A stretch of 64,000 nt of DNA from assembly GCA_014905635.1 (NCBI GenBank), contig JABVCE010000038.1, forward strand, positions 1 to 64,000. Direction: 5' to 3'. This document shows positions 1-56,771 of this stretch, piece by piece. The notes beneath the pieces are model-generated. The model saw nothing but the letters and a program-made list of their open reading frames with translations. It had not been told where the DNA came from and searched no databases. Every line of letters starts with the position of its first letter. The first letter of the stretch is position 1. This DNA is from Scenedesmus sp. PABB004. Taxonomy: Eukaryota. Made by a program: the position numbers and the translations under genes.

Positions 1-3000
1 GCCGGCCGGCCGACCTCTGCGGCGCAGCGCGTGGCCGGGCAGCCTGTTGGAGCCCCGCACGCCCGCTCCCAGGGGCGGCGGGGCAGCGGAAACGGCGCAC
101 GGCAGCGCTGCGCCGCGGCGCCGCCGAGCGGCGCGCCGCGCGGGCGGCGCGCGGCCGCGGCGCGGCGCGGCCGCCGGCGGCGACCTCTGCGGCGCAGCGC
201 GTGGCCGGGCAGCCTGTTGGCCCCGCACGCCGCTCCCCAGGGGCGGCGGGGCAGCGGAAACGGCGCACGGCAGCGCTGCGCCGCGGCGCCGCCGAGCGGC
301 GCGCGCGCGGGCCGGCGCGCGGCCCGCGGCGCGGCGCGCCGCCGGCGGCCGACCTCTGCGGCGCAGCGCGTGGCCGGGCAGCCTGTTGGAGCCCCGCACG
401 CCCGCTCCCCAGGGGCGGCGGGGCAGCGGAAACGGCGCACGGCAGCGCTGCGCCGCGCGCCGCCGAGCGGCGCGCGCGCGGGCGGCGCGCGCCCGCGGCG
501 CGGCGCGGCCGCGGCGGCCGACCTCTGCGGCGCAGCGCGTGGCCGGGCAGCCTGTTGGGAGCCCCGCACGCCCGCTCCCCAGGGGGCGGCGGGGCAGCGG
601 AAACGGCGCACGGCAAGCGCTGCGCCGCGGCGCCGCCGAGCGGCGCGCGCGCTGGGCGGCGCGCGGCCCGCGGCGCGGCGCGGCCGCCGGCGGCCGACCT
701 CTGCGGCGCAGCGCGTGGCCGGGCAGCCTGTTGGAGCCCCGCACGCCCGCTCCCCAGGGGCGGCGGGGCAGCGGAAACGGCGCACGGCAGCGCTGCGCCG
801 CGGCGCCGCCGAGCGGCGCGCGCGCGGGCGGCGCGCGGCCCGCGGCGCGGCGCGGCCGCCGGCGGCCGACCTCTGCGGCGCAGCGCGTGGCCGGGCAGCC
901 TGTTGGAGCCCCGCACGCCCGCTCCCCAGGGGCGGCGGGGCAAGCGGAAAACGGCGCACGGCAGCGCTGCGCCGCGGCGCCGCCGAGCGGCGCGCGCGCG
1001 CGGGCGGCGCGCGGCCCGCGGCGCGGCGCGGCCGCCGGCGGCCGACCTCTGCGGCGCAGCGCGTGGCCGGGCAGCCTGTTGGAGCCCCGCACGCCCGCTC
1101 CCCAGGGGCGGCGGGGCAGCGGAAACGGCGCACGGCAGCGCTGCGCCGCGGCGCCGCCGAGCGGCGCGCGCGGCGGGCGGCGCGCGGGCCCGCGGCGCGG
1201 CGCGGCCGCCGGCGGGCCGACCTCTGCGGCGCAGCGCGTGGCCGGGCAGCCTGTTGGAGCCCCGCACGCCCGCTCCCCAGGGGCGGCGGGGCAGCGGAAA
1301 ACGGCGCACGGCAGCGCTGCGCCGCGGCGCCGCCGAGCGGCGCGCGCGCGGGCGGCGCGCGGCCCCGGGCGCGGCGCGGCCGCCGCGGCCGACCTCTGCG
1401 GCGCAGCGCGTGGCCGGGCAGCCTGTTGGAGCCCCGCACGCCCGCTCCCCAGGGCGGCGGGGCAGCGGAAACGGCGCACGGCAGCGCTGCGCCGCGGCGC
1501 CGCCGAGCGGCGCGCGCGCGGGCGGCGCGCGGCCGCGGCGCGGCGCGGCCGCCGCGGCCGACCTCTGCGGCGCAGCGCGTGGCCGGGCAGCCTGTTGGAG
1601 CCCCGCACGCCCGCTCCCCAGGGGCGGCGGGGCAGCGGAAACGGCGCACGGCAGCGCTGCGCCGCGGCGCCGCCGAGCGGCGCGCGCGCCGGGCGGCGCG
1701 CGGCCCGCGGCGCGGCGCGCCGCCGGCGGCCGACCTCTGCGGCGCAGCGCGTGGCCGGGCAGCCTGTTGGAGCCCCGCACGCCCGCTCCCCAGGGGCGGC
1801 GGGGCAGCGGAAACGGCGCACGGCAGCGCTGCGCCGCGGCGCCGCCGAGCGCGCGCGCGCGGGCGGCGCGCGGCCCGCGGCGCGGCGCGGGCGCCGCGGC
1901 GGCCGACCTCTGCGGCGCAGCGCGTGGCCGGGCAGCCTGTTGGAGCCCCGCACGCCGCTCCCCAGGGGCGGCGGGGCAGCGGAAACGGCGCACGGCAGCG
2001 CTGCGCCGCGGGCGCCGCCGAGCGGCGCGCGCCGCGGGCGGCGCGCGCCGCGGCGCGGCGCGGCCGCCGGCGGCCGACCTCTGCGGCGCAGCGCGTGGCC
2101 GGGCAGCCTGTTGGAGCCCCGCACGCCCGCTCCCCAGGGGCGGCGGGGCAGCGGAAACGGCGCACGGCAGCGCTGCGCCGCGGCGCCGCCGAGCGGCGCG
2201 CGCGCGGGGCGGCGCGCGGCCCGCGGCGCGGCGCGGCGCCGCCGGCGGCCGACCTCTGCGGCGCAGCGCGTGGCCGGGCAGCCTGTTGGAGCCCCGCACG
2301 CCCGCTCCCCAGGGGCGGCGGGGCAGCGGAAACGGCGCACGGCAGCGCTGCGCCGCGGCGCCGCCGAGCGGCGCGCGCGCGGGCGGCGCGCGGCCCGCGG
2401 CGCGGCGCGGCCGCCGGCGGCCGACCTCTGCGGCGCAGCGCGTGGCCGGGCAGCCTGTTGGAGCCCCGCACGCCCGCTCCCCAGGGGCGGCGGGGCAGCG
2501 GAAACGGCGCACGGCAGCGCTGCGCCGCGGCGCCGCCGAGCGGCGCGCGCGCGGGCGGCGCGCGGCCCGCGGCGCGGCGCGGCCGCGCGGCGGCCGACCT
2601 CTGCGGCGCAGCGCGTGGCCGGGCAGCCTGTTGGAGCCCCGCACGCCCGCTCCCCAGGGGCGGCGGGGCAGCGGAAACGGCGCACGGCAGCGCTGCGCCG
2701 CGGCGCCGCCGAGCGCGCGCGCCGCGGGCGGCGCGCGGCCCGCGGCGCGGCGCGGCCGCGCGGCGGCCGACCTCTGCGGCGCAGCGCGTGGCCGGGCAGC
2801 CTGTTGGAGCCCCGCACGCCCGCTCCCCAGGGGCGGCGGGGCAGCGGAAACGGCGCACGGCAGCGCTGCGCCGCGGCGCCGCGAGCGGCGCGCGCGCGCG
2901 GGCGGCGCGCGGCCCGCGGCGCGGCGCGGCCGCCGGCGGCCGACCTCTGCGGCGCAGCGCGTGGCCGGGCAGCCTGTTGGAGCCCCGCACGCCCGCTCCC

Positions 3001-5840
3001 AGGGGCGGCGGGGCAGCGGAAACGGCGCACGGCAGCGCTGCGCCGCGGCGCGCCGAGCGGCGCGCGCGCGGGGCGGCGCGCGCCCGCGGCGCGGCGCGGC
3101 CGCCGGCGGCCGACCTCTGCGGCGCAGCGCGTGGCCGGGCAGCCTGTTGGAGCCCCGCACGCCCGCTCCCCAGGGGCGGCGGGGCAGCGGAAACGGCGCA
3201 CGGCAGCGCTGCGCCGCGGCGCCGCCGAGCGGCGCGCGCGCGGCGGCGCGCGCGCCCGCGGCGCGGCGCGGCCGCCGGCGGCCGACCTCTGCGGCGCAGC
3301 GCGTGGCCGGGCAGCCTGTTGGAGCCCGCACGCCCGCTCCCCAGGGGCGGCGGGGCAGCGGAAACGGCGCACGGCAGCGCTGCGCCGCGGCGCCGCCGAG
3401 CGGCGCGCGCGCGGGCGGCGCGCGGCCCGCGGCGGGCGCGGCCGCCGGCGGCCGACCTCTGCGGCGCAGCGCGTGGCCGGGCAGCCTGTTGGAGCCCCGC
3501 ACGCCCGCTCCCAGGGGCGGCGGGGCAGCCGAAACGGCGCACGGCAGCGCTGCGCCGCGGCGCCGCCGAGCGGCGCGCGCGCGGGCGGCGCGCGGCCCGC
3601 GGCGCGGCGCGGCCGCCGGCGGCCGACCTCTGCGGCGCAGCGCGTGGCCGGGCAGCCTGTTGGAGCCCCGCACGCCCGCTCCCCAGGGGCGGCGGGGCAG
3701 CGGAAACGGCGCACGGCAGCGCTGCGCCGCGGCGCCGCCGAGCGGCGCGCGCGCGGGCGGCGCGCGGCCCGCGGCGCGGCGCGGCCGCCGGCGGCCGACC
3801 TCTGCGGCGCAGCGCGTGGCCGGGCAGCCTGTTGGAGCCCCGCACGCCCGCTCCCCAGGGGCGGCGGGGCAGCGAAACGGCGCACGGCAGCGCTGCGCCG
3901 CGGCGCCGCCGAGCGGCGGCGCGCGGGCGGCGCGCGGCCCCGCGGCGCGGCGCGCCGCCGGCGGCCGACCTCTGCGGCGCAGCGCGTGGCCGGGCAGCCT
4001 GTTGGAGCCCCGCACGCCCGCTCCCCGGGGCGGCGGGGCAGCGGAAACGGCGCACGGCAGCGCTGCGCCGCGGCGCCGCCGAGCGGCGCGCGCCGCGGGC
4101 GGCGCGCGGCCCGCGGCGCGGCGCGGCCGCCGGCGGCCGACCTCTGCGGCGCAGCGCGTGGCCGGGCAGCCTGTTGGAGCCCCGCACGCCCGCTCCCCAG
4201 GGGGCGGGGCCAGCGGAAACGGCGCACGGCAGCGCTGCGCCGCGGCGCCGCCGAGCGGCGCGCGCGCGGGCGGCGCGCGGCCCGCGGCGCGGCGCGGCCG
4301 CCGGCGGCCGACCTCTGCGGCGCAGCGCGTGGCCGGGCAGCCTGTTGGAGCCCCGCACGCCCGCTCCCCAGGGGCGGCGGGGCAGCGGAAACGGCGCACG
4401 GCAGCGCTGCGCCGCGGCGCCGCCGAGCGGCGCGCGCGCGGGGGCGCGCGGCCCGCGGCGCGGCGCGGCCGCCGGCGGCCGACCTCTGCGGCGCAGCGCG
4501 TGGCCGGGCAGCCTGTTGGAGCCCCGCACGCCCGCTCCCCAGGGGCGGCGGGGCAGCGGAAACGGCGCACGGCAGCGCTGCGCCGCGGCGCCGCCGAGCG
4601 GCGCGCGGCGGGCGGCGCGCGGCCCGCGGCGCGGCGCGGCCGCCGGCGGCCGACCTCTGCGGCGCAGCGCGTGGCCGGGCAGCCTGTTGGAGCCCCGCAC
4701 GCCCGCTCCCCAGGGGCGGCGGGCAGCGGAAACGGCGCACGGCAGCGCTGCGCCGCGGCGCCGCCGAGCGGCGCGCGGCGGGCGGCGCGCGGCCCGCGGC
4801 GCGGCGCGGCCGCCGGCGGCCGACCTCTGCGGCGCAGCGCGTGGCCGGGCAGCCTGTTGGAGCCCCGCACGCCCGCTCCCCAGGGCGGCGGGGCAGCGGA
4901 AACGGCGCACGGCAGCGCTGCGCCGCGGCGCCGCCGAGCGGCGCGCGCGCGGGCGGCGCGCGGCCCGCGGCGCGGCGCGGCCGCCGGCGGCCGACCTCTG
5001 CGGCGCAGCGCGTGGCCGGGCAGCCTGTTGGAGCCCCGCACGCCCGCTCCCCAGGGGCGGCGGGGCAGCGGAAACGGCGCACGGCAGCGCTGCGCCGCGG
5101 CGCCGCCGAGCGGCGGCGCGCGCGGGCGGCGCGCGGCCCGCGGCGCGGCGCGGCCGCCGGCGGCCGACCTCTGCGGCGCAGCGCGTGGCCGGGCAGCCTG
5201 TTGGAGCCCCGCACGCCCGCTCCCAGGAGGCGGCGGGGCAGCGGAAACGGCGCACGGCAGCGCTGCGCCGCGGCGCCGCCGAGCGGCGCGCGCGCGGGCG
5301 GCGCGCGGCCCGCGGCGCGGCGCGGCCGCCGGCGGCCGACCTCTGCGGCGCAGCGCGTGGCCGGGCAGCCTGTTGGAGCCCCGCACGCCCGCTCCCCAGG
5401 GGCGGCGGGGCAGCCGAAACGGCGCACGGCAGCGCTGCGCCGCGGCGCCGCCGAGCGGCGCGCGCGGGCGGGCGGCGCGCGGCCCGCGGCGCGGCGCGGC
5501 CGCCGGCGGCCGACCTCTGCGGCGCAGCGCGTGGCCGGGCAGCCTGTTGGAGCCCCGCACGCCCGCTCCCCAGGGGCGGCGGGGCAGCCGAAACGGCGCA
5601 CGGCAGCGCTGCGCCGCGGCGCCGCCGAGCGGCGCGCGCGCGGCGGCGGCGCGGCCCGCGGCGCGGCGCGGCCGCCGGCGGCCGACCTCTGCGGCGCAGC
5701 GCGTGGCCGGGCAGCCTGTTGGAGCCCCGCACGCCCGCTCCCCAGGGGCGGCGGGGCAGCGGAAACGGCGCACGGCAGCGCTGCGCCGCGGCGCCGCCGA
5801 GCGGCGCGCGCGCGGGCGGCGCGCGGCCCGCGGCGCGGCG
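1..5840. repeat. Tandem satellite array, ~172-bp monomer, ~34 copies, open at the left window edge
   Basis: Anchor GACCTCTGC recurs at 12, 183, 351, 520, 696, 868 ... 5338, 5512, 5684 (spacing 168-176). The monomer has about 21 A/T in 172 nt. Homology stops abruptly at ~5841. Confidence 0.98.
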
Positions 5841-5862
5841 CACGGCGCCGGCGGGTTGACAT

Positions 5863-5867
5863 TTACA
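5863..5867 (-). promoter_or_regulatory. Putative TGTAA polyadenylation signal of the peptidase gene
   Basis: TTACA on + (TGTAA on -) lies about 19 nt past the TGA at 5886-5888. TGTAA is the established Chlamydomonas-type poly(A) signal. Confidence 0.55.
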
Positions 5868-5885
5868 CCCATATGCGCTGCGTGC

Positions 5886-8800
5886 TCAACTGCGTATGCT
5901 CTTGAGCAGCGCCTGCGGGTCGGGGCACCAGCCGCCGCATCGCTCGTGCAGGACGCCGTTCCTGCCGCCAGGCCCGCCCAGCGTTGCGGTCAGCAGGTTG
6001 ATCGGCTCCAGGGCGCCGCCTGGCTCCAGCAACAGCTTGCGTATGCGGCTGCCTGCGCACGCAGGCGGCGGGCGGGGGGGGGGGGGGGTGCCATTGAGCG
6101 CCCCCCTCCGCTGCCCATCGCTGCCGCGGGTGCCGCCGTGCGCACCCGCCCCCGCGTCCAGCGGGTCGGCCGCGAGGTGGGTGTCCCAGATTGCCTCCGA
6201 CAGGCAGCGCGCGTAGAGGTAGCTGTAGTACGAGGCGCCGTAGATGGTCAGGTGGCTGAACTTGGCCTGCGGCGACGTGCCCGGCGCCGGCGGCAGGCTA
6301 GCGTGCTCTTGCGCCAGCGCCGCCCACACCTCGCTGGTGCCGCCCGCCTCCGCCGGCAGCGTGGGGCCGTGGTAGACCAGGTCCACCAGCGACAGCAGCG
6401 CCTGGCGCGGCACGCCGACGGGCGGCGGGGCGCTCTCGGCGCGCGGGGCGCGGCGCGTGCCGGGCGCGGGCGCACGGCGGGGCGGCGCAGGAGGGGCGCG
6501 CGCACGCCACCTGCTGCTGCAGCTCCAGCGCGGGCGTGACGGATCCGAGGTGCGACACCTGCCGCGCCAGCTGCGGCGGCAGCGGCTCGCGCGTGGTGCG
6601 GTGGCGCGCCAGCAGCGCCAGCGACGCGGGTGGGTCGCAAAGTGCTCCCAGAGGTGCGAGGGCACTCCACCACGTCCTGCGAGCACCTGCGGGCCACGGG
6701 CGGGAGGCGGGCGGGTTGAGCTGAGCGCGCACGCGCGCAGGCGTGGCGCGGGCCAAGGGCGCCGGCGGCCTGCGCCGCCGCCGGCCGCTCGTGCCGCCGG
6801 GGCGCACCGCGTGCCCCACACGTGCTGGTAGCGCGTGCGCGAGACCAGGCTGTGCACCGCGTGGCCGGTCTCGTGCAGCAGCGTCCGGAACTCCCGCCAA
6901 CTCAGCTGCGTCGCGCCCATGTCGGCGGTGCCGCTGGCGGCCGACGCGGACGACAGGTTGCCGACGAGGCACAGCACCGGCTGCTGGTACTCGCCGCCTG
7001 GCGGGCGGTCAGTCGGCCGGCGCGCTGAGCAGCAGGGCGGGCGGGCGCCTGCGGCCGCTGCCGCGGCCGCCGCGCGGCCGGGGCCGCGTCCGGGCCAATG
7101 CGCGCGCGGGGCCTCACCCGTCAGCTCGCGGCCGCAGCGCACTGGGTAGAGTATGCCGCCGCTGGGCACCTTGCCGGGGCGGGGGCGGAGGTCGAGGTAC
7201 AGGACGCCCAGCGGGCCCAGCGCGGCGCAGCACACCTCCAGCTTCATCACGCCTGTGCCGCGCGCGCGGGCATGGCGGGCCAGGGGCGGGCCGGGCGGCG
7301 CGGGTCGGCACGCCCCGTGGCGCGCGGCGCGGCCCCGCAGCCCGGACGAGCGGCCGGACGGCGCGCCAGCGCCGCGCACCCGCGCCCCAGCCCTCGCCGC
7401 GCCCCAGCGGGCGCTGCGTGAGGCTCAGGCCCATCAGCCGCCCAAGCAGCGCGTCCAGGCCCGCCAGCACGGAGCCGAGGCTGAGGTACGGCGCCAGCGC
7501 CGCGCCGCCGCGCGCGCCCGCCGCCGCGCCCGACGCGAGCTGGCGGGCGTAAAAGTCCTGGTCCCAAGGCTGCAGCGTCGCGCCTGCGGGCGCGACGGCG
7601 CACGGGGCAGGCAGGCTGGGGCACGCCGGGGCACCACCAGCCGACCGCGCGAGCGCGGCGCAGCGCGCACCCGCGTCGCCGGTGTGCTTGCGCTTGAGGG
7701 CGGTGAGCTGCGCCAGCTCCGCCGTCGCCTGGCCCCGCACGCCGGCGGCGAGGTCCTCCAGGAAGGCCTGCGCGGCCGCGGGCGTGCCTGCGCCGCGCGC
7801 GCGCACGCGCACCAGCGGCTGGGAGGCAGCACGGCCGCGCGCGCGCGCGGACGCCCCGACGCCCCGGCCACGCCGGGCCGTCCCCCGCCGCGTCCTGCCG
7901 CGTCCCGCCGCGTCCCGCCGCGCCGCGGGCCGCACCCGCGAGCGTCGCGTCCGCGGCCTTGAAGTGCGCGTAGCTGGCGTGCCCCAGGCTGGCCGCGAGG
8001 TCGTGGCGCGCGGCCAGCATATCGTCAAGCAGCGCCAGGTTGGCCGCCGGCGCGCACGCGCCCGCCAGGTACACCTGCCGGCGCGCGGCCTCGCTGTCCA
8101 CGGCGCCCAGGAAGTGGGCCACGCTGCCGCGTCCAGCGGGACCGCCAGCCGGCCCCGCGCGTCCGCGTGCGCCGCCCACGCGCGCGGCAGCTCGTCGGCG
8201 GGCACGCCCGTCGTGCCCAGCGCCCTGGGGTCGGCCTGGCGGCGGCGCGCGTGCGTGGGCGCGGGCGCGGCAGCAGCGAGTGGCGGCAGGAGGAGGCGGT
8301 CGGGGTGTGGCGACGGCCGTTGCCTCCCACCCTCCCCTGCTCCGCGCGCGCGCTGCTGGCGCGGCGCGGCGCGAACCAGCGTCGCGTTGAAGCGCGCGGG
8401 GAAGTGCTGGTTGAGCGCCAGCAGCCGCGCCACGCGGCGCCGCGCGTCGGGGGAGGGCAGGTGGATGCCGTACTTTTCAAAGTCGGCCCGGTACCGCCCC
8501 GCCACCGCCAGCGTCTCGTCGCAAAACCCCGCCAGCTGCGCAGGCGACAGCAGCTGCGCGCACGGCGGGTGCGGTGGGGGCGGCGTGAGCAGGCGCGGCG
8601 GCGTGCCGGCACGCGCGCGCGTGCGGCCGCCGCGCGCCGCAGCGGCCGCCGCAGCGCGCCTGCTGCCGCAGCTGCCGGCCGGCGGGGTCGTCGCCGGCGG
8701 CCGCCGCCGCGGCCGCGGCGTGCGCCTCCTGCGCCTGCACCAGCTTGTTGTAGAGCCCCGTGTGGTGGTTGATGTCCGCCAGGAACTCGCCCAGGACCTG

Positions 8801-9272
8801 GGGGGGGGGGGGGCACCGCGGCACGGCGCGCAGCGAGCGAGGCGCGCCGTGGGAGCTCGCGCCGCGCTGCAAGCCCAGCTCGCGCGCCGCGCGCCGCGCG
8901 CCGCCGCCGCCGCCGCCGCACCTGGCAGGCCTGGCCCGCGGCTGCGCGCCAGGCGGCGTCGGCGTGCACGTTGCGCGCGCACTCGGCCGCGTCATACACC
9001 TGGCACAGTGCGTCGCTGATGTCGTCAATCAGCCGCACCACGCTCGCGTCCGGGGGCGTCGCCAGCGCCGCCGCCACGAGCTCGCCGCAGCGCGCCTTGG
9101 CGTCCTCCGCCCAGGCGGGGAAGTCGGCGGGGTGCTGCAGCGCGGCGATGCCAAACAGCCCGGGGCCGCCCGGTGCGGCGGCGGCGGCGGCGCCGGCGCT
9201 CGCCGACAGCGCCCGCGCCCGCTGCTCGGCCGCCAGCGCGCGGCGCGCCGCGCCGGCGGCCCGCCGCAGCAT
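5886..9272 (-). CDS. MIPEP: Mitochondrial intermediate peptidase (M3A family, Oct1/MIP), ~11 exons, with three apparent 1-nt frameshifts
   Basis: Presequence-like MLRRAAGAARR; LIDDISDALCQVYDAAECARNVH; LYLDLRPRPGK; HExxH motif LLHETGHAVHSLVSRTRYQHVWGTR; PSHLWEHF; FSHLTIYGASYYSYLYAR; IRKLLLEPGG. GT-AG introns join these blocks. Confidence 0.92.
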
Positions 9273-9360
9273 GCCTGCTGCCTGCTGCCGGGCTGCTGCG
9301 CCTGCCGCGCCTGCTGCTGCTGCCGCTGCTGCCGCGCCTGCCGCGCCTGCCGCTGACGCT

Positions 9361-9830
9361 GCTGCCGCTGCTGCCGCCGCTGCTGCCGCCTGGCTCCACA
9401 GGGCGATGCTGACGTGAGACCGAGGCGGGCGGCCAGGGCAGCGCCGTGCGGGCGGGCGGACGAAGTGGCTGCTGCAGCGGCGGGCGCCGCGCCGGGCGCA
9501 GCAGCGGTCGTCGTTTGCGCTTCGGGCCGCCGCGGTTCGCCGCCCGCTCCTCTGCCCTGCCACCACGCCCCTTCGATCCGCGATCCCGGACGCCCTCCTC
9601 AGCGCTCCGCCGGCGCTCACCAGGCCCCGCAGCGCCGCACGCACCGCCTGCGCGCCGGGCACGCGCCGCGCCGCCGCCGCGCCGGCCCTGCGGCCGCTCG
9701 CCAGTCTGCCCAGGTCCCGGAGCCAGGGCGCTGTCGTGACGCCGCAGTCCCGGCGAACGGGCGGCCAGGCCCCCGCGCCGCGCCGCGGGAGCAGCGGAGG
9801 GCCCGCCGGCGCTGCGGCGCCGTCCGGCCC
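9361..9830. repeat. Inverted repeat copy 1 of a ~470-bp element; putative bidirectional promoter between MIP and TAF10
   Basis: Its reverse complement aligns colinearly with 13946-14410. 9509-9563 is an exact 55-bp reverse complement of 14217-14271. Confidence 0.92.
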
Positions 9831-9894
9831 GGCTGCTGCGGCCCCCAGCCGGCGCTCCGGGTGGCGGAGCCGTGACCCGCGGTAGGCCGGCGCC

Positions 9895-10666
9895 ATGGAC
9901 GGCGAGGGCGCGCCCGCGGGCAAGGCGCTGCCGCCGCGCACCGCCGACGTGATGGCGCGGCTCGAGCACTACCAGCCCACGGTGCGGGGCGCTTCGCTCG
10001 GCGAGCAGCGGAGCCAGCAGAAGCGGCAGCAGCGGAAGAACAGGGGGGAGCAGCAGCAGGGGGCGAGCAGCAGCGGCGCCAGCGGCGCCAGCGGCGCCAG
10101 CGGCGCCAGCGGCGCCAGCGGCGCCCAACCCGCGCCCCCGCCCCGTCTCAGGTGCCTGACGAGCTCGTGCTGCACGTGATGCGCCGCAACGGCGACGACG
10201 GCAGCGACCCGCAGCTGTGCGCGCCCGGCGCGCTGGTGCAGCTGGCTGCCGCCGCCGCGCAGCGCCGCGGCCCCCGCCGGCCGGCCCTGACCGCGGCGCC
10301 GCGCGTCCGCCCGCAGCGTGCGGCTGCTGGGCCTCGCGGGCGAGCGCTTTCTCAGCACCATCCTCACCGACGCCATGCAGTGAGGCGCCGCGCGGCGCAG
10401 GGGCGGCGACGGCGCTGGCAGCGTCGCCCGCTGCACCGGCGGCGCCCGCGCCGCGCCAACCGCCTGGCGCCTGCCGCCCGGCGCCGTGCAGGCTCGCCAA
10501 GCGCAAGCAGCAGATGCCGCTGGCGGCGCGGCGGCAGCTGGGCTACGCGGGGCCGGGCAAGAAGGACGACAAGCGCACGGTGCTGCTGGCCGAGGACGTC
10601 GGCGGGGCGCTCAAGGACGCGGGGCTCAACGCGCGGCCCGCGCCGTACTACATCAACCACGCCTGA
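9895..10666 (+). CDS. TAF10: Transcription initiation factor TFIID subunit 10, 4 exons
   Basis: Spliced product: ...MARLEHYQPT|VPDELVLHVMRRNGDDGSDPQL|VRLLGLAGERFLSTILTDAMQ|LAKRKQ...DKRTVLLAEDVGGALKDAGLNARPAPYY. This matches the TAF10 histone-fold pattern; three GT-AG introns keep the frame. Confidence 0.92.
10071..10125. repeat. Intronic 9-bp minisatellite (CAGCGGCGC)x6
   Basis: Direct tandem copies within TAF10 intron 1. Confidence 0.8.
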
Positions 10667-10835
10667 CGGCGCAGCGCAGCGCAGCGCAGCGCGCGCGGAC
10701 CCGCGCGCGGTGGCGCGGCGGGGCGCGGACCGGGCGCGGCGGCGAGGGGTCACACGGCGCGCCCTGCAGCAGCAGCGGCGCTCGTGCTGCGTCGAGCGTG
10801 CAACGCGCCGCACGCCCGCCGGGCCCGCCCCGCTC

Positions 10836-13800
10836 TCAGCCGGGGTGCGGCCGCGCCAGCGCGGGGCAGCTGGAGGCGATGTCCACCTCCGCGTGCGCCC
10901 ACGCCGCCGCAAACGCGTCGCCCGCTTGCGCGGCGCCGCGACCCCGCGCCGCCGCGACCTGCTGCAGCCCCAGCAGCGACCAGCCGTTGCCCGGGTGGGC
11001 CGCCAGGTCAGCCTCGTACGTGGCGGCGGCCTCGTCCAGCCGCCCCGCGCGCAGCAGCACCCACGCGAGGCACTGCCGCGGCGGCTGGTGCACGCTGCGG
11101 GGCGGCGGCGCGGCCGCGCGCGCGTCGTCCAGGGCGGGGCGGGAGCGCCCCGCCGTCACCCCGGCGCCGCCCAGCGCGGCACGCGCGTGTGCAGGCCCCG
11201 CGCGCGTCGCGCAGGGCGCGCCGCGCACCGCGGGGGCTCCATGTATCCCAGCGCCGCCTCCTCCGCCACGGCCTCGTCGAGCGCCTCCAGCGCGCCGGCC
11301 ATGTTGTTGGCCGCCAGGCGCAGCCGCGCCTCGGCCAGGCGCAGCATGATGGCCGCCAGCGCGCGGTAGCCTGCCGCGGCGGCGGGGGCATGGTGCCACG
11401 CGGCTGGCCAGCGCCCGGCCCCGCGGCGCCGTGTGCGCGCGCTGCCGTGCCCCGCCCCACACACACACACACACCCTCTCCAGCACACGCGCGCCCGCAC
11501 CCGAGGCGTACATCCCCGGCGGCTGCCCCGGCAGCGTCACCGGCTCGGCGGGCACCGCCGCGACCGCCGCCCTGAGCGCCGCGAGCTCGCGCGCGGCCTC
11601 GGCCTCGCGCAGGGCGAGGCTCTTGCGCGCCAGGTCAAACGCGGTCACGTCGCCGACGCCCAGGACCTGGCGCGCCGCGACGCGCCCGCGGCTCGGGGCC
11701 CGGGCCCCGCCCGCGCAGCGCGTCGCGCGCGCGGCGCGGCGACCGCGCGGCGCACGCGCGCCCGCCAGCGCGCACCTGCTCCGCGGCGGCCTGCATGCGC
11801 GCCGCGGCCACGAGCGTCGCGCCCGCGCGGCGCACCACCGCCGCGTATTGGGGCCCCCCGAGCGCCGTCACGCCGCGCGCGTCCGCGGGCGGCGGCGGCA
11901 GCGACGCGAGCTTGGCCCACTCGCCGTACCTGGGGACGGGGAGGGGGGAGGGGGGGCGCCCGGTCAGCGAGTGCAGGGAGGGCAGTGTCTGCAGCGCGTC
12001 CAGCCCCCCCCCCCCCCGACACACACACGGCAACACAGGCACCTGATGTAGAGTGTCGGCAGGCTCACCCACTCGCTGCCGGCGGCCATCCAGGTGTCGG
12101 GCACGCGCGTGCGCAGCGTGCGCACGCCCCGCGCAAACGCCTCGGCGGTGTGGAACATGCCAGCCATGCTGTGTGGCGCGGAGCGGCGCGGCGGAGGGCG
12201 GGCGGCGGCAGTTGGAGGGGGGCGTCGGTCGGCGCGCGGCGGCACGCCGGCGGCGCAGGCGCGGCCCGGCACGCCGCCCTCGTGCCCCCGCCTCATTGAA
12301 CGCGGGCGCGCGCACCTGGCGGCGTAGATGAGGACCGCCAGGTTGTGCTCTGGCAGGTAGGGCACGCGGCACTGCGCGCCGCGCGTGACGTCGTGCTCCG
12401 CCGCCGCGCGGTTGACGGCGACCGCATCGGCGTAGCGCCCGAGGCGCACGTAGATGTGGCTCGGCATGTGCAGCAGGTGCCCGTCCGCCAGCGCGCCGGC
12501 CTGGCGCGCGAGCGCGTCGGCGCTGCCGAACGCGCGGCCCGCCCAGTCGGCTTCGCGCCCTGGCGCGGCCAGCGGGCTGCCCGCCTCGGCTATGTGGATG
12601 TGCAGGTGCAGCGCGTGGCCGTGCCCCGGGCGCAGCGCCAGCGCGGCGCGCAGCAGGCGCTCCGCCTCTGCCGCGGCGGGGCGCAGCGCGCCCGAGGCGC
12701 CGTAGTAGTCCCAGGGCAGGCCGTTCATCACCGCCTCGGCGCCCAGCGCGTACGCGTCCGCGTCCTGCGCAGCGAGGCAGGGGCCCGCCGCGCCGCGCCG
12801 CGGCGGCGCCGCTCAGCGCGCGGCGCCGCTCAGCGCGCGGCGCGCCTGCGCGCCTGGCAGCCCGCCCGCGCTCGGCGCGAGGCGCCCCGCCGGCGCCGCC
12901 GCCGCCCGTGGCGCCGCCCGGCCGCCACCTGGTCCTCCTCGCCGATGGCCGCCATGCGCTCCGCCCAGGCCGCCTCGCGCGCGCGCCAGCTGCCGTCCCG
13001 CAGCGCCGCGGCGCCGCCGCCGAAGCGCGCCGCCGCGGCATCGATGATCCGCCGGTCCCGCCGCACGAGCGCCGCGTCCAGGGAGGAGGAGCCCAGCGCC
13101 GCGTCGCTGGCGCGCAGCGCCGCCTGCGCGGCGCGGCGGGCCGGGTCGGCCGGCCCGGCGCAGCGCGGCGCGGCGCAGCGCGCCGCGGTTGCGCGCCTGC
13201 ATGTGTGCGTGCGCGTCGGTCGCGTGCGCGGCAGTATAAGCAGGGAACGTCTGTCCCAGCCGGCCGGGGACCTTGTTGGGCATCGGGCCCTGCGCGTGCG
13301 CGAGCCCCCAGTGGCACATCGCCGCGCCGGGGTCGGCGCGCAGGCAGGCCTGCAGGCGACGGCGCCGGCGGCGGCGGCGTCAACCCGCGGCGGCACCAGC
13401 CCGCGGCGGCGTCAGCCCGCGGCGGCGTCAGCCCGCGGCGGCGTCAGCCCGCGGCGGCACCAGCCGGCTCGGCGCGCTGCGTGCGCGGCGCCGCGCCTGG
13501 AACATGGTCGTCGCCTCGAGCTGGTTGAAGCTGTGCAGCGCCAGCAGGCCCAGGTTGAACAGCACGCCCGCCGCACCGGGCGACGACGTGGCGATGCTGC
13601 GGTTGACCGCGCGGTTGGCGGCGCCTAGCAGCTTGACGCGCTCCTCGTCGTCCAGCGCGAAGCACCGCGGCGGCCCGCGCCCGAGCGACGCGGCGGCGCG
13701 CGCGCGCGGGCTCGTGAGCCGCAGCGCCACGCCCAGCAGCGCGACGCTCGCGAGCAGCAGCGCCGCGAGCTGCCAGGCCGGCAGGCGCTCGCGGCCGGCG

Positions 13801-13892
13801 TCGGCGCGCGCGTCGTGCTTCCGGCCCCGCGGCGGCCGCGCGCCGAGGTCCTGGCGGCTGCGCTTGCGGACCATGTCGCCGTGGCGATCCAT
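10836..13892 (-). CDS. Uncharacterised TPR-like, His-rich protein with an N-terminal transmembrane anchor, ~10 exons
   Basis: WQLAALLLASVALLGVAL TM segment; FNLGLLALHSFNQLEA..FQ|ACLRADPGAAMCHWGLAHAQGP; HGHALHLHIHIAEA; GHLLHMPSHIYVRLGRY; EADLAAHPGNGWSLLGL; AWAHAEVDIASSC. Resembles a family annotated as TPR proteins in bacteria and fungi (recalled, not searched). Confidence 0.8.
13370..13463. repeat. Intronic short tandem repeat (GGCGTCAGCCCGCGGC-like, ~18-bp period)
   Basis: About five degenerate copies inside the first intron of the TPR-like gene. Confidence 0.65.
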
Positions 13893-13945
13893 GCCGCCGG
13901 GCGCTGGCACACGCCGCCGGCGGGATGCGCCACCGCCCCGCGCGC

Positions 13946-14410
13946 GCCGGGCGGCGCCGCAGCGCCGGCGGGCGATCCGCTGAGGCGGCAGCGCGGCGCG
14001 CGGGGGCCTGGCCGCCCGCTTGCTGGACTGGCCGCGTCACGACACGGGCCGCCCTGGCTCCGGTACCGGGGCAGCTGGCGAGCGGCCGCGGGCCGGCGCG
14101 GCGGCGGCGCGGCGCGTGCCCGGTGCGACGGGTGCGTGTGGCGCTGCGGGGCCTGGTGCGCGCCGGTGGAGCGTTGGGGCGGGCGTCCGGTATCGCGGAT
14201 CAGCGGACGGAGGGGCGTGGCAGGGCAGAGGAGCGGGCGGCGAACCGCGGCGGCCCGAAGCGCAAACGACGCCCGCTGCTGCGCCCGCGCCCGCCGCAGC
14301 CGCAGCCGCTTCGCATGCCCGCCCCTCACTGCGCTGACCTGGCCGCCCGCATCAGTCTCAGGTCAGCGTCGCCCCGTGTGGAGCCAGGCGGCGGCAGCAG
14401 CGGCAGCGGC
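13946..14410. repeat. Inverted repeat copy 2; putative bidirectional promoter between the TPR-like gene and the DnaJ gene
   Basis: Reverse-complement homologue of 9361-9830. Shared blocks include GGGGGCCTGGCCGCCCG, GCGTCACGACA, GCCCTGGCTCCGG, the 55-bp core and GTGGAGCCAGGCGGC. Confidence 0.92.
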
Positions 14411-14439
14411 AGCAGCAGCAGCAGCGGCGCCGCCGCGCC

Positions 14440-15689
14440 ATGCGCGACCCGTGGGCCGAGCTGGGCGTCGCACGGGGCGCGGAGGAGGCGGAGGTGAAGG
14501 CCGCCTACCGCAAGCTGGTGCTGCGGTGGCACCCCGACCGGTGCGCGCCGTCAGCCAGGCGCCGCTGCGCCGCCCCGGCGCCACGCGCCTCGCCGCGCTC
14601 ATGGCCGCCCGTGTGCGCCCGCAGGCACGCCTCCTCCAGTGCCGCCGAGCAGGAGACCGCGGCGGCGCGCTTCAAGGTGCGGAGCGGCCCGCGCCGGCGG
14701 GCCCGCGCGGTTCGCGCTGCGCCGTCCACACGCGCGCGCGGCCCGCCGCCCGCCGCCCGCCGCGCCGCTCAGGTCGTCACCCAGGCCTACGGCATCCTCA
14801 CCGACGGTGCGGCGTGGCAGCGGCAGTGGCTGCGGGAGCCGCCGGCAGCGCGCAGCCGCCGCCGCAGCGGCGCCGGGCGACGCCGCGCGACTGCTGCGCG
14901 CCGACCCTCGCAGACCGCGCGCGCGCCGCGTACGAGGCCGGCCCGAGCGGCCGTGGCACGTACAGCCACAGCGGCGTCAACACCGACTGGGCGCGCAGCG
15001 AGCACGGCGCCGGCGGCGGCGGCTACACCAGCCGGCTGAGTGCGTGGCGGCGCCCCCGCGCGCGCGCGGACGCAGCCGCCCGCACCCTGACGCGGCGCAC
15101 GGCGGCTGAGTGCCGCCGCTGCGCGCGCGCGCCGCGTCCGCAGGCCGCTGGGAGTGGTACCGGCGAATGGCCGCGCAGGGGCTGCGCGGCTTTGGGCACT
15201 CGCTGCACCTCAGCCTCGCGGTGCTGCTGGTGGGCGGGGGGCTGGCGTTTGAGTACTCCCACACAGCCGTGTGGCAGGCGCGCAACAAGGGGGTGAGCCG
15301 GGCGGGCGCCGCGTTGCCGGGCACAGCGCAGACGGCTGCGCGCGCGTGGGCTGCCGCCGCTGGCTGCGGCGCGCGCGCCGACGCCGCGCGGCCGGCCGCA
15401 GAAAACGTTCGAGGACATGCACAGTGCGGTGCGGGAGCAGCGGGAGAAGCGGGCCGCGGGAGCCGGCGGTCAAGGCGGTGGCAGCAGCGGTGGCAGCAGT
15501 GGCGGCGGCGGCAGCGGCAGCAGCGGCGGCGGCGGCGGCGGCGGCGGGCAGGCAGCGAGCGAGAGCGGCGACAGGAGCTGGCACCTGCACAGCTCTTGGG
15601 CTGATGGCATGCGCGGGCGCTTCCTGACGGCGAGAGAGGCGGCAGAGGAGGGCGAGCCGCTTGCCGGCCCGCCAGGCGGCGGTGGGTGA
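14440..15689 (+). CDS. J-domain (DnaJ type C) protein with a C-terminal hydrophobic segment, plant DnaJ72-like, ~6 exons
   Basis: MRDPWAELGV...VKAAYRKLVLRWHPDR (HPD motif)...AARFK|VVTQAYGILTD; C-terminal LAVLLVGGGLAF...VWQARNKG|KTFEDM. Confidence 0.87.
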
Positions 15690-54779: not shown

Positions 54780-56771
54780 ATGGCCGACGGCGCGCTCGAT
54801 TTTGCGGCGGCGGCGGCGTACGCGGCCGGGCTCGCGGGCGTCGGCTGGGAGGCGCTCGCCGCTGCGAGCGGCGGGCCGGCCAGCCGGCCGGGCGGCGCGG
54901 GCTGGGGCGACGACCCGCACGCCGGCGCGGCCGACAGCGGCAGCAACAAGAACAAGCACGGTTTCCGCGGCGTGAGGAAGCGGCCGTGGGGCAGCTACGC
55001 GGCGGAGATCCGCGACGGCGGCGCGAACAAGCGGCGCTGGGTGGGGACGTTCAAGTGCGTCGAGGAGGCGGCGCGCGCCTACGACGCCGCGGCGCTCACG
55101 CTGCACGGCATGCGCGCCAAGACCAACTTCAAGTACTCGGCCGCCACGCTCGCGCGCTACAAGACCGCCGCCAAGGTGCGGACCGCTCGCAGGGAGGGCC
55201 CGGCGGCGCGGGCGCGCTGACCCGCCGCGCCCGCGAGCCCGCCACCCACACGCCGCGCCGCGCCGCGCCGCGCCGCGCGCGCGCAGCACGGCCCGGCCGA
55301 GGACCTGGAGGCGCTGCTGGCAGACATCGCGACCGGCCGCGACCTGCCCGTCCCAGAGGGCATGGAGGAGGAGGACCCGGCGCCCTTTGATGGCCCCATG
55401 GCCGCAGCGGCCGCGGCCGCCACCGCCGGGGCCGTGCCGGGCTCGCCGAGCGCGTCGGGCGGCGGCAGCGGCTGCGGCTCGCGCTCGCCGGCGGGCAGCA
55501 ACCCGCTCGTCGCGGCGGCCGCGGCGGCCGCGGCGGCCATGGCGGCCGAGCAGCCGGGCGGGGGCTTTGCGCCGCCGTTTGGCGGCGGCCCCGGCGCGGC
55601 GGCGATGGCGCTCTTCAAGCACCGCAACCCGGGCTTTGACCTTCCCGACCCCGCCGGCAGCGAGGGCAGCCACCGCAGCGAGCAGCACGGCGCGGACGGG
55701 TCGTCGCCGGCGCTGACGCACCACTCGCCGACGTCGGGCAGCAGCCGGGGTGAGGGCTTCTTTGCCTGGGGCGAGCCCGCGGCGCCGCGCGGCGGCAGCA
55801 GCGGCGACGGCGCCGGCGCGGGCAGCGGCGACCTGTCGGCGCTCAGCCAGCAGCTGGCGGCGCTGGCGCAGCCGCAGCAGCCGGCGGCGGGCGAGGGCGC
55901 GGAGCAGCGTGCGCCCCCGCAGTCGGCGGACGAGGCCGACCGGGCCGTGGGCGCGGCGCTGCTGATGGGCGCCGCCGCCCTGGCCGCCCGCCGCGCCAGC
56001 GACGACGCGCGGCGCGCGCTGAGCGGCAGCGGCGGCGACGACGCGCGGCGCGCGCCGGGCGGCGGCGGCGGCGACGACGCACGCGCGGAGCCGCTGGCGC
56101 CGGGGCTGCAGGCGGCGCCGCAGGCCGCGGGCGGGGGTGCCCCGGCGCGCCTGACGCTGGACAACGCCGTGGCTGCCGCGGCGCTGCTGGGGTCGGTGTT
56201 TGACCTTGACGTGCAGCAGCAGCGCAAGATGCTGGTCGGCCTGGTCAGCAGCGGCCTCTTTGACGTGCGCCTGGAGTGCCTCACCGGCGGCGCGGCCGCG
56301 GCCGTCCTCGCAGGGGGCCGGCCCGCAGACCAGCCCGGTCTGCTGGCGGCGGCGGCGGCGTGCGCGCGCACGCCCGAGGCGGCGCCCACGACGCCCTCTG
56401 GCGCGGCCGAGCAGCGCCAGCAGCAGGAGGCGGCCTTGCAGCAGCAAGGCGGCGGCTGTGGCAGCGCCGCCGAGCGCTCGCCGCCACAGGACACGGCGGC
56501 CGCCGCAGTGGGACAGCCGCCGGCGCCGAGCGCTGGCGGCGCAGCCCGGCGCGCGGCACCCGAGCCGGGCGCCGACGCGGCGGACAGGTGCAGCCTCGCG
56601 GGCGGCAGCCAGGGCCTGGCGAAGCGCGCCAAGCTCGCGCACCACGGCTCGCCCGCGGCGCCCTGCGCCGCGAGCAGCCAGGCGGGCGGCGACGACAAGC
56701 CCCTGAACGCCCTCGCCGCGCTGGCGGCGCTGCTGTCTGACGCCGACGCGCACGCAGAGGGCGGGGCCTAG
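54780..56771 (+). CDS. AP2/ERF-domain transcription factor, 2 exons
   Basis: [49 protein letters not shown]; one GT-AG intron at ~55176-55286. Confidence 0.93.

Follow-up and report, generated by a model that had tools for sequence, protein, structure and literature searches.

In the Drosophila melanogaster group, inverted duplications of non-repetitive breakpoint sequence accompany 17 of 29 fixed inversions, with a median length of 321 bp (range 46 bp–1.9 kb) and an identity of 88% ± 5.4% (Ranz et al. 2007, PMC1885836). The authors account for them by staggered breaks (isochromatid or chromatid) followed by fill-in and end joining, with repetitive sequence in two cases only. In catarrhines, the bidirectional promoter of BRCA1/NBR1 has been duplicated such that each copy lies between divergent transcription units; this duplication is described as tandem, spans ~4.4 kb including 5′ exons, and has as new partners a pseudogene and a long non-coding RNA derived from the same two genes (bioRxiv 10.1101/2025.11.08.687349). 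Here, we analysed the first 64,000 nucleotides of contig JABVCE010000038.1 from the chlorophyte Scenedesmus sp. PABB004 (hereafter the window), in which an element of ~450–500 bp is present in two inverted copies, one between the start codons of the genes for mitochondrial intermediate peptidase (MIP) and TAF10, and the other between those of a TTC38-like tetratricopeptide repeat (TPR) gene and a DnaJ-domain gene. The inverted duplicate is real, and it probably represents the head-to-head intergenic region of one gene pair, of which a ~4.1-kb inversion left an inverted second copy as a by-product.

The closest known kind of event is most likely the inversion-coupled inverted duplication of Drosophila. 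As in that group, inverted copies lie at both ends of the segment proposed to be inverted, and their length and 84–90% identity fall within the range given for the class. In contrast, the segment is tiny (4.1 kb, two genes), the host is a chlorophyte of extreme GC content, and the ancestral state is deduced from annotation order in distant relatives rather than from aligned DNA. Moreover, the duplicate is an approximately complete head-to-head spacer facing intact genes, whereas the Drosophila duplicates are mostly gene fragments that are presumed non-functional (PMC1885836). The likeness to BRCA1/NBR1 lies in a duplicated bidirectional promoter with each copy between divergent transcription units, a role predicted here from position; unlike in that system, the copy is inverted and free of coding sequence, and the two protein genes that it faces are intact and unrelated. 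Finally, inverted repeats flank the segment as in the recurrent inversions produced by non-allelic homologous recombination (NAHR) among human polymorphic inversions (PMC3961182), such that it could flip again in principle, although the arms are only ~0.5 kb long and 84–90% identical, and match perfectly over 55 bp at most. We found no algal example of inversion-coupled promoter duplication in titles and abstracts within the library and terms searched.

The inverted duplicate and its anatomy

The window has a G+C content of 80.3% and contains no N. Its composition agrees with that published for Scenedesmus sp. PABB004, whose 39.8-Mb genome is reported to have 78.5% GC and 1.31% repeats (PMC12571836). 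Searching positions 8500–15500 for repeats revealed a co-linear chain of inverted arms at 9349–9831 and 13943–14428 with 81–90% complementarity, and a gapped local alignment of 9200–10000 against the reverse complement of 13800–14600 spanned 9333–9831 / 14446–13943. The full alignment of the two copies comprises 515 columns, of which 433 are identical (84%), with 55 mismatches (22 transitions and 33 transversions) and 27 gap columns, corresponding to 88.7% identity over aligned bases. The gaps resolve into 12 indels of 2, 2, 1, 4, 4, 1, 2, 6, 2, 1, 1 and 1 nt. Similar values were obtained using blastn (84.1% over 515 columns, E ~1e-152) and using MAFFT on slightly longer stretches of both copies (mean column identity of 87%). 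The left 50 columns consist of (CTG/CCG)n low-complexity sequence and were excluded from what we regard as robust homology, which covers ~9385–9831 / 14396–13943 (461 columns, 391 identical, 45 mismatches and 25 gap columns; p-distance 0.103, Jukes–Cantor distance 0.111).

As BLAST statistics are unreliable at 80% GC, we calibrated the score directly, using 200 dinucleotide-preserving shuffles and 200 real 547-bp pieces from the window. The local score for the two whole intergenic regions was 286.5, compared with a mean of 16.2 (maximum 22.5) for the shuffles and a mean of 17.7 (maximum 36.5) for the real pieces. In a self-comparison of the window, the copies formed the sole inverted pair of at least 120 bp, while all 33 direct pairs fell within a tandem array at 1–6600; together, blastn, the core pattern described below and the self-comparison place exactly two copies of the element in the window. 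These data confirm the inverted duplicate, which a first-pass annotation had noticed as reverse-complement homology between 9361–9830 and 13946–14410, at an identity (84%) somewhat above the ~80% estimated there by eye. We rejected an assembly artefact by inference, as 10–16% divergence and 12 indels are unlike what a collapsed or chimeric assembly leaves behind.

Each copy sits in a divergent spacer. The MIP and TAF10 start codons, at 9272 and 9895, agree with Pfam and with mapped protein models, upholding the 623 bp given for this spacer by the first-pass annotation. The DnaJ start at 14440 on the plus strand was likewise upheld, whereas the 548 bp given for the other spacer holds for an ATG at 13892 and becomes 566 bp when the public model's start at 13874 is used. 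The former ATG of the TTC38-like gene is in frame and lies six codons upstream of the latter. Both head-to-head spacings (623 bp and 548–566 bp) are thus below the 1 kb used as a criterion for bidirectional promoters. The homology lies outside every coding sequence, as had been claimed, except for a low-complexity alignment tail running 7 nt past the DnaJ ATG, which we regard as a (GCN)n artefact. The copies stop 50–112 nt before each of the four start codons, bounding the TAF10 and TTC38-like block exactly, and all four flanking gene models are intact.

Read in the orientation of copy 1, the element consists of a (CTGCTGCCG)n tract, ~445 bp of unique sequence and a sharp homology end at 9831 / 13943. 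Past this end the two sequences are unrelated, over the 63 nt that lead to the TAF10 ATG and the 50 nt (68 nt by the annotated start) that lead to the TTC38-like ATG. The tract measures 115 bp in copy 1 and 41 bp in copy 2, indicating that it has expanded or contracted since duplication. Lying 3–12 nt from the start codons, the (CTGCTGCCG)n / (GCN)n tracts fall inside the 5′ leaders of MIP and DnaJ.

Identity is uneven along the element, ranging from 70% to 100% in 30-column windows, with peaks at the core (9493–9552) and at 9654–9698. The exact 55-bp core reported by the first-pass annotation was recovered by alignment at the same positions in both copies (Table 1). When the differences were scattered randomly over the columns, a run of at least 55 matches occurred in 0.28% of 20,000 permutations (P=0.0028); the run is therefore longer than an even spread of differences allows, fitting either constraint or gene conversion. 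A 31-nt core pattern had two sites only in the window, even with 3 mismatches allowed, and the 31-mer had no match in metagenome, prokaryote-genome and viral contig collections, which may simply lack the alga. Also kept in both copies are a further run of 34 bp and the 11-mer GGGCGGCCAGG, which occurs twice per copy in direct orientation at a spacing of ~332 bp. Four of its five occurrences in the window lie inside the element, compared with 0.83 expected in the window from shuffles. The lone occurrence outside is found at 55979–55989 on the minus strand, in GC-rich sequence. We also considered a TGACG-like motif found upstream of each GGGCGGCCAGG site, and dropped it because conservation fails at one of the four. 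The core, the 34-bp run and the twin GGGCGGCCAGG sites are, as judged from the sequence, candidates for retained promoter elements or for gene-conversion tracts.

The element is non-coding, because 11 of the 12 indels have lengths that cannot be divided by 3 and none of its five open reading frames (ORFs) matched Pfam. A conserved ORF inside the element was accordingly rejected, given that these 11 indels break frame; stop-free frames are themselves uninformative, since nearly all six frames are open at 80% GC. Rfam gave no match on either strand of 8800–15000 at E values up to 1, and ARAGORN predicted no tRNA or tmRNA gene. Consensus folds contained double changes in 2 of 135 pairs on the plus strand and 2 of 138 on the minus strand, the same on both strands, although a comparison of two sequences at 80% GC is nearly powerless in this respect. 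Examination of the repeats within each copy, which did not extend to target-site duplications, revealed no inverted-repeat pair linking one end of a copy to its other end.

Origin of the duplicate

We propose that the ancestral order was MIP← →TTC38-like … ←TAF10 →DnaJ. Staggered breaks flanking one intergenic region (P), together with a second break in the other, would then have been followed by fill-in and end joining, flipping the two-gene block of TTC38-like and TAF10 and giving MIP← [P] →TAF10 ←TTC38-like [P inverted] →DnaJ. Broken down into pieces, MIP← m′·P·p′ →TTC38-like … ←TAF10 t·d →DnaJ would have become MIP← m′·P | t →TAF10 … ←TTC38-like p′·P(inverted) | d →DnaJ. Here, m′ measures 112 nt and is repeat tract throughout, and the other unique pieces measure 63 nt for t, 50–68 nt for p′ and ≤43 nt for d. 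The duplicated region would thus comprise the promoter and 5′ leaders of the source gene pair. A mirror scenario, in which P derives from the TAF10/DnaJ spacer rather than from the MIP/TTC38-like spacer, fits equally well, and both the break mechanism and the choice of source spacer are deduced from the present arrangement. The left homology boundary falls within the CTG/CCG-type repeat. Repeats of this type are structure-forming and break-prone.

An inversion origin is supported by the geometry of the locus, by annotation order in relatives, by the uniqueness of the copy pair within 64 kb and by the non-coding nature of the element. Relatives were compared by the order of accessions and locus tags only, a numbering that carries no gene orientation. 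In PABB004, MIP (KAF8055907), TAF10 (KAF8055908) and TTC38-like (KAF8055909) have consecutive accessions. In Raphidocelis subcapitata, TTC38-like (GBF99344, Rsub_11756) and MIP (GBF99345, Rsub_11757) are consecutive on one 98,196-bp contig, as are a partial MIP (KAF6261102) and TTC38-like (KAF6261103) on one 486,431-bp contig of Scenedesmus sp. NREL 46B-D3. MIP (SZX67883) and TTC38-like (SZX72403) of Tetradesmus obliquus are numbered far apart; from the two newer assemblies of Tetradesmus, the protein search returned no MIP. MIP and TTC38-like are therefore neighbours, with nothing annotated in between, in two of the three relatives for which both accessions were available, while TAF10 intervenes in the window. 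The first-pass annotation had predicted the ancestral pairs MIP/TPR-like and TAF10/DnaJ. The MIP/TPR-like pair is found in the annotation order of Raphidocelis and NREL 46B-D3; it is not seen in Tetradesmus, whose accessions are not consecutive.

In a maximum-likelihood tree of ten TTC38-like proteins, the window protein falls inside Scenedesmaceae (97/97), as sister to Flechtneria plus (Tetradesmus + NREL 46B-D3), and Raphidocelis and Monoraphidium (Selenastraceae) form the sister clade (99/98). Three outgroup branches were flagged as long, and the row of the window protein was flagged because its composition deviates. As the MIP/TTC38-like adjacency is seen in members of both Scenedesmaceae and its sister Selenastraceae, parsimony suggests that their adjacency is ancestral and that the order in the window is derived. 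We also scanned metagenomes, using as seed a MIP-related JGI gene call; over its 34 aa of real exon, this call shares 94% identity with the PABB004 MIP model. The 80 loci retrieved were generic M3 peptidases, none of which had a TTC38-like gene, a TAF10 relative or the element nearby, and the one long MIP-like match among them had 27% identity and 53% GC.

Several observations weigh against an inversion with staggered breaks. The tree represents a single gene, with the window row flagged for its composition, and the numbering in relatives gives order without orientation. Consecutive numbering would be equally expected if the small TAF10 gene sat unannotated between MIP and TTC38-like. The distant accessions of T. 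obliquus lend no support, although numbering there may not follow position. The NREL 46B-D3 assembly is untidy at this locus, since it has two MIP entries, a C-terminal partial one beside TTC38-like on the 486-kb contig and a full-length one (751 aa) on another contig, of 8.6 kb. This points to a gap in the assembly, or to a haplotig left unmerged, precisely at the MIP/TTC38-like locus. Finally, the spacer that did not supply P would have measured, from ATG to ATG, at most ~106 nt (TAF10/DnaJ) or ~162–180 nt (MIP/TTC38-like), provided that joining entailed no loss of DNA. Such a spacer is short relative to the present 548–623 bp and constitutes a mild difficulty.

A first alternative reverses cause and effect: a pair of inverted repeats, for example copies of a promoter-seeking mobile element, may already have lain in both spacers, and the block was later flipped through homologous recombination between these repeats. 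This would give the same final geometry, and gene order in relatives supports an inversion while remaining silent on how it arose. Nevertheless, two independent insertions would be needed, each nearly filling a head-to-head spacer and sparing the coding sequences, and the window holds neither further copies nor terminal inverted repeats. The low repeat content given for the genome (1.31%; PMC12571836) and the Drosophila precedent, in which only 2 of 29 inversions had repetitive breakpoint sequence (PMC1885836), point the same way, and we consider this order of events unlikely.

The second alternative dispenses with the inversion altogether: the present gene order would be ancestral, TAF10 would be unannotated in the relatives, and template switching or ectopic repair would have copied one spacer into the other. 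TAF10, a small gene with four exons, is easily overlooked in annotation, and the non-consecutive accessions of Tetradesmus are in keeping with this history. It requires, however, that two independently made annotations both overlooked the gene, and that the copying replaced a near-whole spacer precisely between start codons, in inverted orientation and at both ends of a two-gene block. Such a replacement appears improbable.

Thirdly, the first-pass annotation had considered an element resembling a miniature inverted-repeat transposable element (MITE), domesticated as a promoter; such a dispersed element would be present in many copies genome-wide and unrelated to any rearrangement. The directly oriented GGGCGGCCAGG sites near both ends of each copy could be read in its favour. 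The duplicate is nevertheless unlike a dispersed repeat, since the 64 kb contain just two copies, the repeats found within either copy include no terminal inverted repeats, and the reported repeat content is low (PMC12571836). The core also found no match in the metagenome, prokaryote-genome and viral contigs, with the limit on those collections noted above. Overall, a MITE-like origin is disfavoured and seems quite improbable. A duplicated gene for a structured non-coding RNA between the protein-coding genes, another of the earlier suggestions, would explain the uneven conservation and the exact core and agrees with consensus folds of low energy, but sequence of 80% GC folds strongly regardless and the Rfam scan, the tRNA search and the folds yielded no match, no tRNA and no meaningful covariation, making it very improbable.

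Predicted promoter function and conserved blocks

Both copies are likely to act as bidirectional promoters, a prediction from position: they nearly fill divergent spacers, two of the genes have kept little upstream DNA of their own and the gene models are intact. From the same positional argument, the four genes would share one promoter module. Under an inversion with staggered breaks, the genes cut from their own upstream DNA would be either TAF10 (63 nt left) and DnaJ (≤43 nt), or MIP (112 nt, CTG-type repeat) and TTC38-like (50–68 nt). Given such short stretches of their own, these two genes would at present depend for transcription on a copy of the bidirectional promoter that belonged to the other pair.

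We tentatively extend this to a natural promoter swap, which is possible but on balance doubtful. In this scenario, the inversion would have left two housekeeping genes with ~40–110 nt of their own upstream DNA, running on the mirror copy, and the mitochondrial peptidase, the TFIID subunit, the TTC38-like protein and the J-protein would be co-regulated, with the central parts of the element (the 55-bp block and the twin GGGCGGCCAGG sites) kept alike through selection or through gene conversion. Constraint on promoter elements may explain the conserved blocks, although gene conversion between the arms would give the same pattern. Flipping of the cassette at the present day, through arms that are 84–90% identical and include a 55-bp perfect block, is possible in principle but unlikely.

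If this interpretation is correct, the locus would be a compact and clean non-animal case in which an inversion brought with it a second copy of the sequence at its breakpoint, that copy being an entire bidirectional promoter and not a defunct piece of a gene. It would show a small inversion between essential genes that silenced none of them, and a route by which unrelated genes come to share regulatory DNA. The element would also be a naturally replicated promoter, with copies that are ~11% diverged and have evident conserved blocks, and could help to define promoter elements in algae of extreme GC content, for which knowledge of core promoters is limited.

Flanking genes and neighbouring repeats

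Using Pfam on raw ORFs, we found Peptidase_M3 in minus-strand ORFs to the left of copy 1 and DnaJ in a plus-strand ORF to the right of copy 2, while TAF10 and the TPR-like gene were missed because they are split by introns. Three protein models from a single 246,936-bp contig of PABB004, namely TAF10, MIP (OCT1) and a hypothetical protein of 673 aa, map onto the window by tblastn. Most exon segments of the three models are 96–100% identical (95.7–100% for TAF10), and the lower-scoring segments cross introns, as their length exceeds that of the protein stretch covered. The last TAF10 exon, used as a query, returned one protein, the 129-aa TAF10, with 100% identity over 48 residues. The TPR-like family is large, with 1,312 library proteins at E ≤0.001; the orthologue in Tetradesmus is called "Tetratricopeptide repeat protein 38" by one source, and TPR Pfam domains occur in bacterial relatives. 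TAF10 (end at 10666) and the TTC38-like gene (end at ~10845) are convergent. Coordinates are collected in Table 1.

Table 1. Features of the duplicated element and of the genes around it, in window coordinates.
Feature	Position	Strand	Remarks and basis
Copy 1 of the element, robust homology	9385..9831	.	Low-complexity homology continues leftward to ~9333; repeat search, alignment, blastn
Copy 2, reverse complement of copy 1	13943..14396	.	Low-complexity homology continues rightward to ~14446; repeat search, alignment, blastn
Exact 55-bp core, copy 1	9509..9563	.	Overlaps the least GC-rich 30-column alignment windows (70% G+C in copy 1)
Exact 55-bp core, copy 2	14217..14271	.	Pattern match and alignment
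11-mer GGGCGGCCAGG, first of two direct occurrences per copy	9427..9437	+	Kept in both copies
Other GGGCGGCCAGG sites in the element	9759-9769; 14007-14017; 14338-14348	+; -; -	Motif count
(CTGCTGCCG)n tract, MIP-facing end of copy 1	9275..9389	.	Ends 3 nt from the MIP start codon
Counterpart of the (CTGCTGCCG)n / (GCN)n tract in copy 2	14388-14428	.	Ends 12 nt from the DnaJ ATG
Segment between the copies, 4,111 bp	9832..13942	.	Probably inverted; holds TAF10 (+) and TTC38-like (-)
MIP, mitochondrial intermediate peptidase (peptidase M3; annotated OCT1), multi-exon	5868..9272	-	Start codon at 9272; Pfam PF01432, tblastn
TAF10, 4 exons, 129 aa	9895..10666	+	PF03540 (precomputed), mapped protein model
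TTC38-like TPR gene, multi-exon	10845..13892	-	Annotated start at 13874; frame translations, homologues, mapped model
DnaJ-domain gene, first part	14440..15039	+	Pfam PF00226; J domain directly after the ATG

Tandem repeats are also present elsewhere in this part of the window. A 172-bp satellite in 34 tandem copies (97% matches) occupies 1–5854, from the window edge to just before the 3′ end of MIP (~5868), and is crossed by a spurious open frame of 2,178 codons (3–6536, plus strand). A 9-bp unit (CAGCGGCGC) is repeated six times in TAF10 intron 1 (10071–10125), and a 16-bp unit is repeated 5.5 times at 13371–13458, in an apparent intron in the first part of the TTC38-like gene.

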